Positions 18,920 through 40,932 of a stretch of 64,000 bases of DNA are shown here, one piece after another. This DNA comes from Patescibacteria group bacterium (GTDB taxonomy: Bacteria; Patescibacteriota; Minisyncoccia; UBA6257; HR35). Position 1 is the stretch's first letter. The number at the start of each line of letters is the position of its first letter. The notes beneath the pieces are model-generated. The model was not told the DNA's origin and ran no database searches. It saw nothing but the letters and a program-made list of their open reading frames with translations. The DNA lies in contig JAUQQN010000001.1 of the NCBI GenBank assembly GCA_030549845.1, positions 133,668-197,667 of the forward strand, in the 5' to 3' direction. A program made the translations under genes and the position numbers.

Positions 18920-19258
18920 TTAAATTTTCGTTGTTAATCTTATATCAAAAATTCTATCTATACTTATTAAACTCGGCCCAACAGAAATTAAAATTATAAA
19001 ATAAGCTATTAAAAGAAGTTTGACCAAATCTATTCTTTTTTCTTTAATTATTAGTACTAAATTTGCTAAAATCCAAAATAGAGAAATCAAAGAAGTCAAA
19101 AAGCCTGTTGCTATCATAAAACTTGATATAAAATAAATTAAGCTTTTCAATTTATTTTCTTTAAATTTATTTAAACCAAAATTAAAATATACATATCCCA
19201 CAATTAAACGAGATAAAAAAATTCCTAGAAAATCAAAAGCCCACAAAAATTGTATCAT
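18920..19258 (-). CDS. small membrane protein, DoxX-like
   Basis: 112 aa, LSRLIVGYVYFNFGLNKF resembles the DoxX LRIxLGxxFxxxGxxK motif. Confidence 0.4.
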   Translation of the reverse strand: MIQFLWAFDFLGIFLSRLIVGYVYFNFGLNKFKENKLKSLIYFISSFMIATGFLTSLISLFWILANLVLIIKEKRIDLVKLLLIAYFIILISVGPSLISIDRIFDIRLTTKI

Positions 19259-20291
19259 GGAGAAAGCTTACTTTAACGTAATAAATCAAATTTTCAAGCC
19301 TTACCAAGCTTCTATACTTAAATTATATCAAAAATTTAGAAGTTTTGAAAAAGTTTACGACTATTTAAAGAGAAATAACAAATTAAAAGAAATAGATATA
19401 GAAAAAGAATATGAAAAAGTAAAAAAATTAGACATAGAAGTGGTTACATTAAGCGAAAATGGGTATCCGGAGGTTTTAAAAAATATTGATAGTCCTCCGC
19501 TTGGTTTTTATGCATTAGGAAATTTAAAAATTTTAAAAGAGGAAACCTTATTTGTAGCAATTGTTGGAACAAGAAAGGCAAGCAATTATGGAAAGGAAAC
19601 ATCTTTTAGATTTTCTAAGGGTTTATCAAATTTAGGAGTCATTATTGTAAGTGGATTAGCTTATGGAATAGATGAGTATGCTCATAAAGGCGCAGTTGAT
19701 GTAGGGTCTAAAACAATTGCAGTATTAGGAGAAGGAATTGATTTGGTATTAAATTCTCCAAAAAGAAAATTAGTTGAGAAAATTTTGGAAAATGACGGTT
19801 TAATAATATCTGAATATTCTTTATCCACACCTGCTATGCCTTATCATTTTCCTTTAAGAAATAGAATAATTGCTGGATTGAGTAATGCAGTATTGGTAAT
19901 TGAAGCACCAATAGATTCTGGAGCACTTATTACAGCAAATTATGCTTTAAAGTATGGGAGGGAGATTTTTGTTGTCCCTGGTGAAATAACTAATAAAAAT
20001 TTTGAAGGAAGCCATAATTTAATTAAGCAAGGAGCAAAACTTGTAACCTCTATTGAAGATATCTTAGTTGAGTTTGGAATTGATTATAAAGAAAAAAACA
20101 AAGTTAAAAAATTGAAGTTATCACCAAGAGAAGAAATTATTATTGAATCTTTACAAGTTAAAGAAAAGACAATAGAAGAATTAAGTAAAGAAACAAATTT
20201 CCCTATTCAAGATTTATTGGTCTTATTAACTCATATGGAAATAAAAGGCTTAATAAAAAACAAAGAGGGTAAGTTTTATTTGAATTTGTAA
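19257..20291 (+). CDS. dprA: DNA-processing protein A (natural transformation, ssDNA protection)
   Basis: Rossmann-like DprA core (VGTRKAS..., GLAYGIDEYAHKGA, VVPGEI), C-terminal winged-helix-like tail; 344 aa. Confidence 0.85.
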   Translation: MEKAYFNVINQIFKPYQASILKLYQKFRSFEKVYDYLKRNNKLKEIDIEKEYEKVKKLDIEVVTLSENGYPEVLKNIDSPPLGFYALGNLKILKEETLFVAIVGTRKASNYGKETSFRFSKGLSNLGVIIVSGLAYGIDEYAHKGAVDVGSKTIAVLGEGIDLVLNSPKRKLVEKILENDGLIISEYSLSTPAMPYHFPLRNRIIAGLSNAVLVIEAPIDSGALITANYALKYGREIFVVPGEITNKNFEGSHNLIKQGAKLVTSIEDILVEFGIDYKEKNKVKKLKLSPREEIIIESLQVKEKTIEELSKETNFPIQDLLVLLTHMEIKGLIKNKEGKFYLNL

Positions 20292-20313
20292 TTGCAAAAA
20301 TTTGGAGTATAAT
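20286..20313 (+). promoter_or_regulatory. sigma-70-type promoter TTGTAA-16-TATAAT driving the downstream small RNA
   Basis: TTGTAA at 20286..20291, 16-nt spacer, TATAAT at 20308..20313, immediately after the dprA stop codon. Confidence 0.45.
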
Positions 20314-20320
20314 TTATTTA

Positions 20321-20471
20321 AGAACACTAGGAAGGGCTGCCGAGTTCGGAGACCTCCGGGGAGGTGACGGGCCCCCGGAGAAAGGCAGCCCTTCCTATGT
20401 TATATATAGAGGGAGGCATGGGATTTTATATCTTATTTTAATTCTTCCCCTGCCTCCCTTTTTATTTTTTC
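20321..20471 (+). ncRNA. candidate small structured RNA, identity unresolved (SRP/4.5S-like is one possibility)
   Basis: Sharply GC-rich region: a 12-bp perfect outer stem (20330..20341 / 20384..20395) encloses an 8-bp inner stem (CTCCGGGG/CCCCGGAG). A second hairpin AGGGAGGCATGGG...CCCCTGCCTCCCT (20410..20459) followed by a T-tract (20460..20471) acts as terminator. Weak similarity of CCGGAGAAAGGCAGCC to the SRP domain IV consensus CCGGAAGGAAGCAGCC. Confidence 0.35.
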
Positions 20472-20667
20472 TTAATTCTATTTCTTATTATGGTAGCCAA
20501 AATTCAAAACCTCACAAGCTCGCCTTGAATCATTAAATAACAAATCAAGAAGACCTAAAAGATTAGGACAATCCAAAATCAATCCTCTAAAACAACCTCA
20601 ATCTGAATTTTCGTAATCTGATTACGAAAACTACGAAAACTAATAATTTTTCTTTTAGGTCCATCTA

Positions 20668-20695
20668 TTGACAAAAAAATAAAATTTGTTAAAAT
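20668..20695 (+). promoter_or_regulatory. near-consensus sigma-70 promoter TTGACA-16-TAAAAT for the lipoprotein gene
   Basis: TTGACA 20668..20673, 16-nt spacer, TAAAAT 20690..20695; strong SD AGGAGGTG at 20713..20720 lies 7 nt before the ATG. Confidence 0.55.
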
Positions 20696-20727
20696 TAGAG
20701 CGGAAATCTAGAAGGAGGTGTTGGGTA

Positions 20728-21054
20728 ATGAGACGTTTATTTTTATTTTTAATTTTCGCAACGGCGTTTGTCGGTGGCTGCGGAGGGGGACATAAGCCCC
20801 CCTCCGTTGAGACGTTGCCTCCGGCTCCAACCACAAAGGTGGAGTCGGGGCCTATTGTGGGCTGGTGGTGGGTAACCATCACCAGCCATACGACCCCTTC
20901 CCGGATAGAAGTTATCCGGGAAGGGGTAACATTGTTTAATTTTTTAGAGACCCGGGAGGTCAAAATCGACCTCCCGGAGGGTAATTACCTCATCCGGGTG
21001 ATATACCCGGATGGGGGCTCCTGGGAGGGAGAGCTGACTCTCCCTCCCAAATAG
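20728..21054 (+). CDS. small GC-rich lipoprotein (108 aa; lipobox FVGGC)
   Basis: ATG at 20728 after AGGAGGTG; signal peptide MRRLFLFLIFATAFVGG|C; mature part is beta-strand-like. The annotated ORF start at 20686 is upstream of the RBS-supported ATG. Mature-region GC is far above the genome background. Confidence 0.6.
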   Translation: MRRLFLFLIFATAFVGGCGGGHKPPSVETLPPAPTTKVESGPIVGWWWVTITSHTTPSRIEVIREGVTLFNFLETREVKIDLPEGNYLIRVIYPDGGSWEGELTLPPK

Positions 21055-21066
21055 TTTTTTCCACAG

Positions 21067-21092
21067 CCCCACCCTTTCGGGTGGGGTTTTTT
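21067..21092 (+). terminator. rho-independent terminator (CCCCACCC-TTTC-GGGTGGGG + T6)
   Basis: Perfect 8-bp GC stem, 4-nt loop, TTTTTT tract, 12 nt after the lipoprotein stop codon. Confidence 0.75.
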
Positions 21093-21113
21093 ATTCCACT
21101 TTTATTTGACTTA

Positions 21114-21143
21114 AAACAAATAAATCCGTACGGAACTATTTGT
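21114..21143. repeat. palindromic element with TTCCGTACGGAA core, copy 1
   Basis: AAACAAATAAATCCGTACGGAACTATTTGT; near-identical to 27942..27975; imperfect hairpin; 39 nt downstream of the ileS stop codon. Confidence 0.5.
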
Positions 21144-21181
21144 ATAAGTAATTTTTATTTTGTTAGATTTTGAGAAAGGAA

Positions 21182-24100
21182 TTATTCTATCCAAATATTA
21201 ACTTTTCCAAAATTTTCATATTCGAATTCCCTTTCCAATTTAAATTTTTTAGAAACTCCAAATTTAAGGTTGCTTATATTTGTTTCTTTTTTAATTCTTA
21301 ATAGATTTTTTGAAATAATGTTTTTTAGGTTTTTAGGCAATAACATGGAAACATTTATAGGAGTTATAGGGATTAATCCTAAATCTTGTCTTAAATCTTG
21401 AATATATCTTATAAAATCATTTACTATTCCTTCTTCTTTAAGCTCTGGTGTTATTTCTTTATTAAGCCAAACATAAATAGGAGAGTCTGCAAATAAATAG
21501 TTTTCTTTATTTTTAGGCTCTCCAATTATTACTTTTTTAACATTTACTTCTTCTTTGATAAGTTCCAAATATTCTTCTTCTATTTTTTCTCCTAAATAAA
21601 CTTCTTTTAAGGGTTGCCTTACTTTTATTCCATTATTTTTTCTTAGCATCAAAATTTCTGATGTTATTTCTCTTACTTTTTTCATTTCTTTAAGTATTTC
21701 TTTTTCTTTTGTTGACAAATCTTTAGGGGGTAAAACTTTTTCTAAATGAACACTTATTTCTACCTTTTTTCTATCTTTCATTTCATTTTTTATCTCATGA
21801 TAAAGAAACTCACTAAAGAAAGGAGTTATTGGAGCAGAAATTTTTGCTATTTCAAAAAGATATTCTTCTAACTTCATCATAGCGATTTGTATTTCATTTT
21901 CATTTTTAGGTCTTTGGAACCTTCTTCTGCTCCTTCTTAGCCACCAATGAGATAAATCTTGAACTAAATTTACCAGTTCTCTACTTGCTTTTGTTGGATT
22001 GAAGTTATACAAAGATTCATAAACTATTTTATAAGCTTCTTTTAATCTCACATCAAACCATTTATCAATTATTTCTTTACTTTGATAATTTCTAATTTTT
22101 AATTTCTTTGGTTTTCTGTACATTCTATAAAAGTTAAAAATATTCAAAAGCAGATCAAAGTAATTTCTCTTTAGGTTTATAAGCTCTTCTTCTATGAATC
22201 TTTTATTATCAGCAGATTCACTTACATAAACAAAGTAAAACCTTAAAAGATCAGCTCCGTATTTTTCGATGGCCTCCATAGGATCTACAACGTTTCCCAA
22301 TGACTTGGACATTTTTCTTCCCTCCTTATCTAAAACTAAGCCCAAAGAGACTACATTTTTGTAAGTTTCCATTTTCTTTATCAAATACCCTATAACTAAC
22401 AAAGTATAAAACCAACCCCTTGTTTGATCTATTCCTTCCACAATAAAATCTATAGGGAATAAAATTCCTTCATCTATTTCTTTTTTATTTTCAAATGGAT
22501 AATGAAAAGATGCAAAAGGAACACACCCTGAGTCAAACCAAATATCTGCTAAGTCTTCTATTCGTTCTTTTAATCCTCCACATTTACATTTCCATTTAAA
22601 TTTATCCACATAAGGCCTATGAATATTTATTTCATTATTTTCATCTCTTGGCAAAATTAAAAGTTCAATTTCTTTATATTCCCCAGGTTCGAAGTTAAAT
22701 TCTTCATTTTCTGCTGTTTGTTTTTTAGAAAGCCCTTGCATTTCTCCACAAAGAGCCCATAAAGGATCCTGATGTGATACTATTAAGATTGTTTTTCCTT
22801 CATACTTTTCTTCCAAATCTAAAATTACTGATATCATTCTTTTTCTTACATCATCCAAACTTTCACCATTTTCTGGGGCTTTGAAATACTGATCATATTG
22901 ATCTTCATAAAGCTTATCATATTCTTTTATTGATTTACCGTTTAATACACCAAAATCTATTTCTCTTAACCTTAGATCTACAATAATCGGAACTCGTAAA
23001 ATATTAGAAAGTATTTCTGCAGTTTGCTTCGTTCTTAAAAGTGGTGAAGTTACAATAAAGTCGATATTCTTCTTCGCTAACTCTTTAGCCACCTTCATTA
23101 TTTGTTTTTCTCCATTCGAGGTCAATGGGTTAAAGAAAACTTCAGGGTAGGAAGATAGTAATTCTTTTACATTACTTATGGCTTCTCCATGCCTTAAAAG
23201 AATGTATTTATTTTTTGATTTGAAATGTTGAGCAAGCTCCTTTAAACTCCCTATAACTTCTATTGAACCACAGCTATTACATTTCCATATAGGAAGAGGT
23301 ATACCCCAAACCCTTGTTCTTGATAGATTCCAATCTTTTCCTTCCTTAAGCCATTCATAAAATCTACCACTTCCAATTTCTTTTGGATACCAATTTATTT
23401 TTTCGTTAATTTTTAATAGCTTATCTTTAAATTTAGATACTTTAATCACCCAATTTTTTGTTGAATAATAAATAAGCGGTGTTTTACATCTCCAACAATG
23501 GGGATAATCGTGTTCATATCCAGTTAAATTTGCATAGAGGATTAAATTTCTTTCTTTTAAGTCTTCAACAATATATGGATCTGCATCTTTAAAAAATAAA
23601 TTATTTATTTTACTACTAATAAAAGCTGGTTCATCAAAATTAAAAATTCCTGACTCGTTTATTGGATTTATTAGAGGAAGATTATATTTTTTACTTAATT
23701 CAAAATCCTCTTCACCAAATGCAGGAGCTATATGAACTATTCCTGTACCTTCGTCTTCTTTTACGAATTCTGCTAAATAAACTTTAAATGCATTTTCATA
23801 ATTTTCTATATTTTCTGGAGGATAAAGAGGTTCATATTCTAAACCTTCTAGTTCTTTGCCTTTTATTTTTTTAATCTCTATTCCTTTAAATCCCTGAGGA
23901 AGCCTTAAAGATATTAGAATTTCTTCATTTAAGTCAAATACTTTATATTCATACTCTGGATGTATTGCTAAAGCTATATTTGAAATTAACGTCCATGGGG
24001 TTGTTGTCCAAACTAAGAAATAAATTTGTTTTTCAGAAAATTCTTCTAAAAAGTGTGGAATGTTTTTCAACTTAAACTTAACATAAATATCAGGATCTAA

Positions 24101-24688
24101 AACTTTTTTATAAGCATCAACTTGTCCTACTTCGGCTTGAGAAAGGACGGTTTCGCATCTTGGGCAATAAGGAAAAACTTTATATTCTTCTTTTAAGTAC
24201 CCTTGATCATAAATCTTTTTAATAATCCACCAACAGGATTCCATGTAAAATGGATCATAAGTGATATAAGCATTTTTATGATCAATCCAAAATCCCATCA
24301 TTTCATCCATTTTCTCCCATTCATTTTTATATTTCATAACAAGCTCTTTACATTTTGCATTAAATTTATCAATTCCATATGAAAATATATCTTTTTTTGT
24401 TTTAAATCCTAAAAATTTTTCAGTGGCAACTTCTATAGGAAGTCCGTGCGTATCCCATCCTGCCCTTCTTTCAGCATATTCACCAATCATTGTTCTAAAT
24501 CTTAAAATAATATCTTTATAAACTCGGGTAAGAAAATGCCCGATGTGAGGTTTATCATTAGCATACGGAGGACCTTCAACAAAAACAAATCTTTTATTTT
24601 TTATATTTCTTTTTAAGCTTTCTTTAAAAATATTATTTGATTTCCAAAAATTTATTATTTTCTTTTCCAATTCACTTAGATTTAGCAT
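21182..24688 (-). CDS. ileS: isoleucine--tRNA ligase with an inserted histidine-phosphatase (PGAM-like) domain
   Basis: HIGH-region PPYANDKPHIGH, GWDTHGLPIE, WGIPLPIW, WFDSG, KMSKS (RKMSKSLGNVVDP). A ~195-aa insertion (aa ~495-690) carries LLRHGEAISN and VSHQD motifs of the histidine phosphatase superfamily; it sits between CNSCGS and CKCGG. 1168 aa. Confidence 0.85.
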   Translation of the reverse strand: MLNLSELEKKIINFWKSNNIFKESLKRNIKNKRFVFVEGPPYANDKPHIGHFLTRVYKDIILRFRTMIGEYAERRAGWDTHGLPIEVATEKFLGFKTKKDIFSYGIDKFNAKCKELVMKYKNEWEKMDEMMGFWIDHKNAYITYDPFYMESCWWIIKKIYDQGYLKEEYKVFPYCPRCETVLSQAEVGQVDAYKKVLDPDIYVKFKLKNIPHFLEEFSEKQIYFLVWTTTPWTLISNIALAIHPEYEYKVFDLNEEILISLRLPQGFKGIEIKKIKGKELEGLEYEPLYPPENIENYENAFKVYLAEFVKEDEGTGIVHIAPAFGEEDFELSKKYNLPLINPINESGIFNFDEPAFISSKINNLFFKDADPYIVEDLKERNLILYANLTGYEHDYPHCWRCKTPLIYYSTKNWVIKVSKFKDKLLKINEKINWYPKEIGSGRFYEWLKEGKDWNLSRTRVWGIPLPIWKCNSCGSIEVIGSLKELAQHFKSKNKYILLRHGEAISNVKELLSSYPEVFFNPLTSNGEKQIMKVAKELAKKNIDFIVTSPLLRTKQTAEILSNILRVPIIVDLRLREIDFGVLNGKSIKEYDKLYEDQYDQYFKAPENGESLDDVRKRMISVILDLEEKYEGKTILIVSHQDPLWALCGEMQGLSKKQTAENEEFNFEPGEYKEIELLILPRDENNEINIHRPYVDKFKWKCKCGGLKERIEDLADIWFDSGCVPFASFHYPFENKKEIDEGILFPIDFIVEGIDQTRGWFYTLLVIGYLIKKMETYKNVVSLGLVLDKEGRKMSKSLGNVVDPMEAIEKYGADLLRFYFVYVSESADNKRFIEEELINLKRNYFDLLLNIFNFYRMYRKPKKLKIRNYQSKEIIDKWFDVRLKEAYKIVYESLYNFNPTKASRELVNLVQDLSHWWLRRSRRRFQRPKNENEIQIAMMKLEEYLFEIAKISAPITPFFSEFLYHEIKNEMKDRKKVEISVHLEKVLPPKDLSTKEKEILKEMKKVREITSEILMLRKNNGIKVRQPLKEVYLGEKIEEEYLELIKEEVNVKKVIIGEPKNKENYLFADSPIYVWLNKEITPELKEEGIVNDFIRYIQDLRQDLGLIPITPINVSMLLPKNLKNIISKNLLRIKKETNISNLKFGVSKKFKLEREFEYENFGKVNIWIE

Positions 24689-40713: not shown

Positions 40714-40871
40714 AAATTTACAAGTTTTCCCTTGACAGACAAAAATTATTTATTTAAAATTTTTAAAATAATGCATAAAAGTTTAATAAATAATTGGATA
40801 TTGATTTTGTTTATTATTAAAGGCCGGAGGGGTGCCGGTTAGTTAATTTTAAATATAAAAAGTGTTCTAAA

Positions 40872-40898
40872 GCCGGCACCCCGCCGGCTTTATTTATT
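40872..40898 (+). terminator. rho-independent terminator GCCGGC-ACCCC-GCCGGC + T-rich tract
   Basis: 6-bp GC stem plus TTTATTTATT; its upstream partner arm at 40823..40838 (GCCGGAGGGGTGCCGG) repeats the first 13 nt of tRNA-Ser. Confidence 0.4.
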
Positions 40899-40932
40899 CT
40901 AAAAGGTCATGATTAATTTCAAAAGTTAATCT

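Follow-up and report, generated by a model that had tools for sequence, protein, structure and literature searches.

Between the convergent genes dprA and ileS of a Patescibacteria group bacterium lies a GC-rich insertion, and the question that this locus raises is what its first ~150 nt, here called the small unit, might be. The window, that is, the whole stretch of DNA analyzed, comprises 64,000 nt (contig JAUQQN010000001.1, positions 133,668 to 197,667 of the forward strand; positions below are those of the window) with a GC content of 28.2%, and belongs to an AT-rich, Paceibacteria-like metagenome-assembled genome (MAG). A sequence-only reading had described, directly after dprA, a promoter-to-terminator unit with a GC-rich double hairpin, and had suggested that it could be ffs, the gene for the signal recognition particle (SRP) RNA. 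We find instead that the small unit is a real, novel, and lineage-restricted plus-strand structured RNA element of the dprA/ileS cassette; most likely, it serves as a cassette-associated terminator/insulator or is a stable small RNA (sRNA).

The small unit is a stable GC-rich structure in an AT-rich background

The TTGTAA-16-TATAAT motif after dprA, the nested 12-bp and 8-bp stems, and the hairpin with its U-tract terminator are all present where the sequence-only reading had placed them, base for base (Table 1). Both stems of the proposed double hairpin exist, but the internal loop between them is asymmetric, with 12 nt on the 5' side and 3 nt on the 3' side, and the architecture is therefore one bipartite hairpin (hairpin 1, internal loop 12 x 3 nt) rather than two. 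The 156-nt small unit folds at -74.5 kcal/mol, compared to -47.5 ± 4.1 kcal/mol for dinucleotide shuffles (z = -6.6), and none of the 200 shuffles folded as well. Sliding 80-nt folds over the 64 kb had a mean of -8.3 kcal/mol (standard deviation 4.6), and the small unit reached -46 kcal/mol. All 16 of the 16 most stable 80-nt windows fell within 20321-21100, where only the region of the adjoining lipoprotein gene was comparable to the small unit. The window contains four strong GC islands, namely the two tRNAs, the small unit, and the adjoining lipoprotein open reading frame (ORF); the proposal that a GC-rich structured non-coding RNA element stands out from the AT-rich background as the tRNAs do was thus borne out. 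No other match to parts of the GC-rich island was found within the window.

The terminator proposed downstream of hairpin 1 is a genuine intrinsic terminator (20408-20470), in which a GC stem-loop is directly followed, on the transcribed strand, by the U-tracts U5-A-U6 (20459-20463 and 20465-20470). Hairpin 1 (20330-20395) has no U-tract in the window; its homologue in L005, one of the related loci described below, is directly followed by U6. A scan of the 64 kb for strong GC hairpins with a T-run detected only two such terminators, both within the dprA/ileS island. The genome is otherwise almost devoid of strong intrinsic terminators. The coding potential of the small unit is limited to a 14-codon AUG ORF at 20398, which has no Shine-Dalgarno (SD) sequence and is not conserved, since its AUG is lost in L013 (AUUG); the small ORFs of the L017 and L070 units lie in differing frames.

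The small unit is confined to a narrow sub-clade

In the commonest state of this locus among relatives (60-72% DprA identity), gyrB, a small ORF, and dprA run straight into the convergent ileS with no intergenic DNA; dprA abuts or overlaps ileS by a few bases, with no terminator or hairpin between them, in L003, L004, L006, L020/21, L071/72, and L073-75. The small unit and the lipoprotein gene occur together in the window's species (the window, L001, L002, L013-15, L056, L076, and L077). L017 and L070 (74% DprA identity) carry a shorter small unit together with diverged lipoprotein alleles, and L005 (72% DprA identity) has a related small unit as well as the remnant of a second unit, which shares the promoter and the CCCCACC/GGUGGGG terminator. 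Other small GC-rich units are found in L018 and L019, and L016 (83% identity) has unrelated AT-rich DNA at the locus and no small unit. The insertion is a GC-rich, hairpin-dense stretch of ~0.8 kb that is confined to a narrow sub-clade. Every lineage with the lipoprotein gene or its remnant (L005, L013-15, L017, L070, and L076) has a GC-rich hairpin with a U-tract between dprA and the cassette promoter; relatives without a co-oriented cassette have no such hairpins.

A 21-base gapped motif searched in 241 million metagenome records gave 20 matches, of which only L056 (29% GC, same species) was real; the family is therefore real but very narrow. A 15-base motif gave 28 matches in viral contigs, all of them chance matches in contigs of 55-73% GC (GC-rich phages), and a protein-anchored metagenome scan for wider relatives found none. 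L077 (GCA_038998185.1, JAVZIH010000069.1) is a 2.9-kb contig of the same species with an identical small unit; it sits in a MAG labeled Candidatus Aenigmatarchaeota, where it is probably a binning contaminant.

Pairing is maintained across variants and the plus strand is favored

The inner hairpin and its loop show no variation within the species, and the outer stem varies yet stays paired. Three two-sided changes and no disruption were observed in the outer stem (L013 and L014): L014 carries a G-C to A-U and an A-U to G-C change, and L013 an A-U to G-C change plus one bulge. In a simulation, the probability that four random substitutions leave 12/12 pairs intact was ~0.005. Beyond the species, L005 shares with the window, at the same genomic position, the elements CTGCCG, GGGG-A..GACGGGC-CCCC, and GGCAG in this order; its outer stem has 17 bp, one of them a G·U pair and another flipped from G-C to C-G.

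The terminator varies in a similar manner. In L076, its 5' arm changes from AGAGGGAGGCAUGGGA to AGGGGGGUGGGGG with the 3' arm unchanged, so that pairing is kept via G·U and on the plus strand only (-24.5 kcal/mol versus -17.9 kcal/mol on the minus strand); in L013, the U-C mismatch of the window is repaired and one G·U pair is introduced. Across variants, the small unit folds more stably on the plus strand than on the minus strand, by 4-7 kcal/mol. Because pairing is maintained by G·U alone and the plus strand is the more stable one, the structure is more likely to be one of plus-strand RNA than a DNA cruciform; the terminator shows this most clearly.

Covariation in relatives, on which the sequence-only reading had made the element depend, supports it in part: stem pairing is kept through two-sided changes, but the shuffle control for hairpin 1 was not significant and the distribution is narrow. 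Several points weigh against the element as read here. Hairpin 1 has 2 two-sided pairs among three distinct sequences, a value reached by 61 of the 500 shuffles; RNAalifold on the raw MAFFT alignment recovers only one covarying pair; and, apart from L005, the covariation comes from only three distinct variants, all of them close. When the variants of the species, with two 4-nt duplications trimmed, were made into a covariance model, it matched L005 marginally (17.3 bits, E = 0.12), which was the sole other match in 184 kb, and it did not detect the units of L017 and L070. Moreover, in palindromic DNA, template-directed mutation could produce changes that look compensatory.

This last point leads to an alternative, in which the small unit is a functionless relic or selfish palindrome, either a decayed cassette fragment or a GC-rich insertion, whose stems are kept perfect by intrastrand templated repair. 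The locus behaves as a hotspot, with differing small GC-rich units or remnants in each lineage (the second unit of L005, L018, and L019); the stems form perfect palindromes of Watson-Crick pairs, the indels duplicate 4 nt in tandem, as slippage typically does, and the distribution is patchy, to the point of absence from L016 at 83% identity. However, the G·U-only maintenance of the terminator and the asymmetry in favor of the plus strand argue for a constraint at the RNA level, and the loop motif is kept at 72% DprA identity. A mobile or derived origin also finds little in the searches: save at the orthologous site, neither the window nor the 184 kb of relatives contains another copy; phage, plasmid, and viral collections gave no match; and similarity to the lipoprotein gene was not significant at the protein or DNA level. 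We consider a relic improbable.

Candidate origins of this kind were set aside individually. For repetitive extragenic palindromic (REP) or miniature inverted-repeat transposable element (MITE)-like repeats, the hairpin arms are unique in the window, and the covariance model finds only its own locus and the orthologous site of L005 in the 184 kb. For a remnant of the lipoprotein gene, six-frame translations gave a best p of ~0.01 in one of seven units, in Pro/Gly-rich low-complexity sequence, which is unconvincing. For the template repeat of a diversity-generating retroelement, local alignments between the unit and the lipoprotein gene in four genomes showed no significant similarity in either orientation and did not rise above shuffles. 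For a phage or plasmid origin of the island, blastn gave no match in phage or plasmid collections.

The small unit matches no known RNA family

At the gathering threshold, Rfam matched only the two tRNAs over the 64 kb. At E <= 10, region 20200-20720 gave no SRP, 6S, or riboswitch match and only sub-threshold matches to eukaryotic microRNA (miRNA) and small nucleolar RNA (snoRNA) hairpin models; likewise, the window and the loci of seven relatives gave only sub-threshold generic hairpin matches (eukaryotic miRNA/snoRNA and terminator-like sRNA models). The Rfam comparison that the sequence-only reading had pointed to (RF00169, 6S, and others) therefore left the small unit without a family, and the suggested ffs was rejected: RF00169 does not match even at E <= 10, the features of SRP domain IV are lacking, and the unit is missing at the locus in most relatives. 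The apex of hairpin 1 is an 11-nt loop on eight uninterrupted Watson-Crick pairs, not a GNRA tetraloop with symmetric and asymmetric loops, and a universal, slowly evolving gene would not be expected to be missing at the locus in L003, L004, L006, L016, L020, and L071-75. There was also no match to 6S RNA (RF00013; ~180 nt with a large central bubble), and the small unit consists of two separate hairpins without a central bubble. ARAGORN, used for tRNA and tmRNA, finds only the two tRNAs of the window.

A divergent housekeeping RNA (ffs, 6S, or another universal RNA) that escaped the models would share with the small unit a stable GC-rich hairpin of SRP-like length, and the string GGAAG..GC.GCC superficially resembles GGAAGCAGCC. 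Such an RNA would, however, have to have escaped the SRP and 6S models at E <= 10 with an 11-nt loop on eight perfect pairs, to be missing at the locus in most relatives, and to vary between strains, and the metagenome scan recovered the same species only. Its chance of being correct appears negligible.

The order of promoter, structured domain, terminator, and gene resembles a transcriptional riboswitch, and the small unit might in principle be a cis-regulatory leader (riboswitch or attenuator) that governs read-through into the lipoprotein gene. This is disfavored because the lipoprotein gene has its own near-consensus promoter (20668-20695), which lies between the terminator and the ORF and is present in all alleles. 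In addition, no known aptamer family matched, no convincing antiterminator pairing was seen, the spacer between the two units varies from ~20 nt to ~200 nt between lineages, and the body is not conserved among the lineages that share the lipoprotein gene. A leader is thus very improbable. A type III toxin-antitoxin RNA was rejected as well: the unit contains no tandem repeat, and the downstream protein is a lipoprotein with an immunoglobulin (Ig)-like fold and no PADLOC or Pfam match.

A role in cis is tentatively favored

Given the structure and its distribution, we predict that the small unit acts in cis at the RNA level, a reading to which we lean with somewhat less than even confidence. 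The insertion begins, as its first module, with a ~150-nt thermostable non-coding plus-strand RNA structure in which the bipartite hairpin is followed by the terminator, and the strongly promoted, hyper-structured, and hypervariable orphan lipoprotein gene forms its second module. Transcription from dprA, from the unit's own weak, -10-driven promoter, or from both would be stopped by the GC hairpin and U-tract; the lipoprotein cassette would thereby be insulated from dprA, and a nuclease- and heat-resistant hairpin RNA would be left as a 3' cap or as a stable sRNA. The apical loop GACGGGC, which is kept in distant members, may also bind a partner. A cis role is favored because such hairpins occur only where a co-oriented cassette or remnant follows dprA, because the L005 homologue of hairpin 1, with its U6, is itself a terminator there, and because the genome is otherwise without strong terminators. 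The adjacent mRNA shows a similar kind of selection for RNA hairpins, and the island therefore appears to be built for structure at the RNA level.

Two features fit this role poorly. Hairpin 1 is surplus to plain termination, since it has no U-tract in the window and a separate terminator follows, and the invariant inner hairpin and loop, partly kept in L005, fit specific binding better than a generic roadblock. An independent gene for a trans-acting sRNA, which we regard as unlikely on balance, is still plausible, given that termination does not need hairpin 1 and that the loop of this hairpin is conserved. Such an RNA would start ~7 nt after the TATAAT, end at the terminator, and act via the apical loop GACGGGC or the 12-nt internal loop on an mRNA or a protein, possibly tied to the lipoprotein allele. 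Its promoter-to-terminator architecture agrees with the arrangement seen. The strains retain a -10 box, and so do the orthologous units of L005, L017/L070, and L019, where it lies 8-25 nt upstream of a GC-rich body that has itself diverged. The same geometry is found at both tRNA genes, where a TATAAT precedes the GC-rich RNA by 13-16 nt and the -35 boxes are equally weak. On the other hand, promoter-like hexamers occur here at chance frequency: the 1-kb region contains 3 promoter-like sites where 3.0 are expected, so that the match at the small unit is not above chance, and the motif shows no enrichment over chance in AT-rich DNA. The RNA may equally be no more than the tail of the dprA transcript together with its terminator.

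The loop motif GACGGGC is common to the window cluster and L005, at 72% DprA identity; however, its complement GCCCGUC occurs nowhere else in the 64 kb, and nearly all other nucleotides are locked in perfect GC stems. The divergence between L017 and L070, which affects only the unit body and the lipoprotein coding sequence (CDS), hints at co-diversification of the two, but neither complementarity nor similarity of the unit to the lipoprotein transcript reached significance in any of four genomes, and the L017/L070 unit is not detectably homologous to the hairpin of the window. For the same reason, an antisense partner of the lipoprotein gene was rejected (no significant complementarity in the four genomes; whole-transcript RNAduplex was uninformative). 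What looks like the loop motif in inverted orientation in L017 (GGCCCGUCGUCCUCC) was treated as chance because the covariance model misses L017 on both strands.

The neighboring lipoprotein gene is a hypervariable chain of hairpins

The second unit of the insertion carries a strong promoter, which is kept in L013, L017, L070, L076, and L005, and an orphan lipoprotein gene, whose ORF encodes a real protein. Four members of the lipoprotein family were found in protein collections of 5.8 and 1.8 billion sequences, and a fifth allele (L076) came from a strain contig; the five alleles share the lipobox and the conserved motifs GCGGGH..P.VET and VIYPDG. Searches for a known family or defense system gave no Pfam or PADLOC match. 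An AlphaFold2 model predicts a seven-strand Ig/fibronectin type III (FN3)-like beta-sandwich, with a mean predicted local distance difference test (pLDDT) score of 81 and values >90 over the domain.

The lipoprotein mRNA strings together seven near-perfect GC hairpins, followed by a terminator. Its codon-position GC contents are 0.52/0.49/0.60, compared to 0.37/0.22/0.20 in dprA, and its minimum free energy (MFE) is -188.6 kcal/mol, compared to -126.9 ± 6.3 kcal/mol for synonymous-codon shuffles (z = -9.8). Other alleles gave z values of -9.1, -5.0, and -3.6 in the same test, and the dprA control gave 0.0. Across three alleles, 90% of 300 pair-cells are paired, and there are 8 two-sided pairs, compared to 4.3 ± 1.3 in shuffles (0 of 500 reached this value) and 0-2 in slid controls. 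Paired columns differ in 24% and unpaired columns in 45%. The fold of the plus strand is favored over that of the minus strand by 23-25 kcal/mol, and the two contain 15-19 and 0-6 G·U pairs, respectively.

The gene is also hypervariable. L017:1790-2593 and L070:50-830, both from the same Joint Genome Institute (JGI) metagenome (3300020567), are near-identical at the ends of dprA and ileS as well as in the two promoters and the two terminators; heavy divergence is sharply confined to the lipoprotein CDS and to the ~40 nt that make up the body of the small unit. Between strains of the window's species, DprA is 97% identical and the lipoprotein 67% identical. Taken together, the selection for hairpins in the lipoprotein mRNA and the divergence between L017 and L070 indicate that the whole insertion consists of selected RNA hairpins and is allelically hypervariable.

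A further reading, to which we give only a slim chance, is that the island represents, in thermophilic Patescibacteria, a type of locus that has not been described before: a hypervariable cassette for a surface lipoprotein that is constrained by RNA structure and has either a co-diversifying small RNA or hairpin-driven diversification. The small RNA and the whole coding mRNA may then be selected as thermostable chains of hairpins, and the body of the small RNA may diversify together with the lipoprotein allele, for instance because it regulates that allele specifically or is its immunity partner. In another version, it would be the hairpins that cause the alleles of an episymbiont's host-contact protein to diversify.

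In the middle of the lipoprotein CDS (20893-20945, plus strand), a 15-16-bp hairpin is followed by a T-rich tract and resembles a terminator. The T-rich tract (F-x-F codons) after the hairpin recurs in other lipoprotein alleles, and translation-dependent premature termination inside the CDS is a possibility.

Features and setting of the dprA/ileS junction

The features of the junction are listed in Table 1. The stop codon of dprA overlaps the -35-like hexamer of the small unit. The spacer between the two units is largely missing in L013, which has ~50 nt instead, and one copy of its TACGAAAAC repeat is missing in L001. The stem that ends the lipoprotein unit is the same as that at the end of the remnant second unit of L005. 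No GC-skew switch, as a signal of a replication origin or terminus, was found at the dprA/ileS locus.

Table 1. Coordinates of the features at the dprA/ileS junction, as positions in the window
Feature	Position	Strand	Details and basis
dprA, left flank	19257..20291	+	Pfam DNA_processg_A on the product; TAA stop at 20289-20291
Promoter-like site of the small unit	20286..20313	+	TTGTAA 20286-20291, 16-nt spacer, TATAAT 20308-20313; 10/12 positions match
Bipartite hairpin (hairpin 1)	20330..20395	+	Sequence and fold
Hairpin 1 outer stem, 12 bp	20330-20341 / 20384-20395	+	GGAAGGGCTGCC / GGCAGCCCTTCC; sequence
Hairpin 1 5' internal loop, 12 nt	20342-20353	+	Sequence
Hairpin 1 inner stem, 8 bp	20354-20361 / 20373-20380	+	CTCCGGGG / CCCCGGAG; sequence
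Hairpin 1 apical loop, 11 nt	20362-20372	+	AGGTGACGGGC (= AGGUGACGGGC); sequence
Hairpin 1 3' loop, 3 nt	20381-20383	+	AAA; sequence
AU-rich linker, 12 nt	20396..20407	+	UAUGUUAUAUAU; sequence
Intrinsic terminator	20408..20470	+	16-bp stem with one mismatch, 20408-20423 / 20446-20461; 22-nt AT-rich loop
Variable AT-rich spacer	20471..20667	+	C>G skew about -0.5; 9-nt tandem repeat TACGAAAAC x2.2 at 20623-20642
Promoter of the second unit	20668..20695	+	TTGACA, 16-nt spacer, TGnTAAAAT; 11/12 positions, extended -10; strong, near-consensus
Orphan lipoprotein gene, 108 aa	20728..21054	+	GGC lipobox; SD AGGAGG at 20713-20718
Terminator of the lipoprotein unit	21065..21094	+	CCCCACCC / GGGUGGGG and U-tract; same stem in L005 remnant
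ileS terminator, weak	~21120-21145	-	UCCGUACGGA and U-rich sequence; sequence
ileS, right flank, convergent	21182..24688	-	Pfam tRNA-synt_1/Anticodon_1 on the product

The DprA homologues all come from Patescibacteria/Parcubacteria MAGs, among them Ca. Paceibacter and one hot-spring MAG. The two tRNAs of the window have 62-67% GC in a genome of 28% GC, which suggests that the host is a thermophile. The ileS product (1168 aa) contains a histidine-phosphatase domain (His_Phos_1, PF00300) between its two tRNA-synt_1 matches, as do those of relatives.

Two observations concern other parts of the window. A second unit of a style similar to that of the small unit lies 3' of tRNA-Ser (40733-40900, plus strand), with a promoter-like TTGACA-17-TAAAAT (40733-40761) and, ~60 nt after it, a 16-bp GC stem GCCGGAGGGGUGCCGG/CCGGCACCCCGCCGGC that encloses an AT-rich loop of 31 nt and is followed by a U-rich tail (40822-40900). 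Outside the dprA/ileS island, no other place in the 64 kb has an 80-nt MFE near -41 kcal/mol. An apparent gene-free gap at 54.6-55.6 kb is occupied by a 354-aa ORF.

Significance and comparison with known systems

To our knowledge, the non-coding RNAs of Patescibacteria (the Candidate Phyla Radiation) are almost entirely uncharacterized, and the small unit provides a concrete candidate for a structural non-coding RNA in this group, with some comparative support. It follows the logic of the classic GC-content screens, in which a GC-rich structured RNA or terminator stands out in an AT-rich thermophile, and it indicates that GC-island screening works in AT-rich, apparently thermophilic Patescibacteria genomes. 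The dprA/ileS junction is, moreover, a compact and experimentally tractable locus with an orphan Ig-like surface lipoprotein of an episymbiont, whose mRNA, with its chain of hairpins and its hypervariability, is a bigger surprise than the small unit itself. If RNA structure and hypervariability were connected, the locus would offer a new model for how tiny symbionts vary or stabilize the expression of a host-contact protein at high temperature; if they were not, the interest of the unit would be local, as a terminator or stable RNA of unusual robustness.

The closest precedent in approach is the set of High-GC (Hgc) non-coding RNAs, which Klein, Misulovin, and Eddy reportedly found in 2002 through GC-content screens of AT-rich hyperthermophiles. 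This work is cited in PMC2955705. Like the Hgc RNAs, the small unit is a discrete GC-rich structured island in an AT-rich genome whose tRNAs are GC-rich too, and the function of the Hgc RNAs was likewise unknown at their discovery. Unlike them, it is not archaeal (Methanocaldococcus, Pyrococcus) but belongs to a hypervariable insertion in a few close bacterial lineages, and it shows no sequence or covariance-model similarity to them (no Rfam match).

The small SRP RNA (4.5S, RF00169) resembles the small unit in being a single elongated GC-rich hairpin of ~70-110 nt with a promoter and a terminator, but differs from it in its domain IV tetraloop and conserved loops, its detectable model, and its universality. 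Rho-independent terminators and sRNAs from 3' untranslated regions (UTRs) resemble it in another respect: a GC hairpin with a U-tract ends the upstream gene, and a stable RNA could be released. One such sRNA, MicL, is processed from the cutC 3' region and represses lpp (bioRxiv 10.1101/341578), and by analogy, the gene for a small, abundant lipoprotein would be a plausible partner. In contrast to ordinary terminators of this genome, the stems of the small unit are far longer and GC-richer; in contrast to terminator-type sRNAs, it adds a 66-nt hairpin without a U-tract, and the loop of its terminator has 22 nt; and in contrast to MicL-type sRNAs, no complementarity between the small unit and the lipoprotein mRNA was found in four genomes.

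With respect to gene order, type III toxin-antitoxin (ToxIN-like) loci consist of a promoter, an RNA, a terminator, and a protein gene. As in these loci, a structured RNA with a terminator lies here directly upstream of a co-oriented small protein gene at a variable locus. However, there are no tandem antitoxin repeats and no PADLOC match, the protein is a secreted Ig-like lipoprotein and not an endoribonuclease, and the second gene has a promoter of its own.

The lipoprotein gene has its own counterparts. The lpp mRNA of E. coli is classically described as a series of stable stem-loops, which has been linked to its long half-life, and the gene described here likewise encodes a small lipoprotein, from an mRNA that folds into consecutive hairpins over its whole length. 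Palindromic GC-rich insertions are also known from AT-rich genomes, as Rickettsia palindromic elements and yeast mitochondrial GC clusters; GC-rich palindromes within an AT-rich genome are found here as well, in this case inside a coding region. In those elements a mobile family is repeated, whereas each hairpin of the lipoprotein gene is unique. What sets the gene apart from both lpp and the palindromic elements is that its hairpins covary and are kept more than the linkers between them, in a gene that is hypervariable between co-occurring strains.

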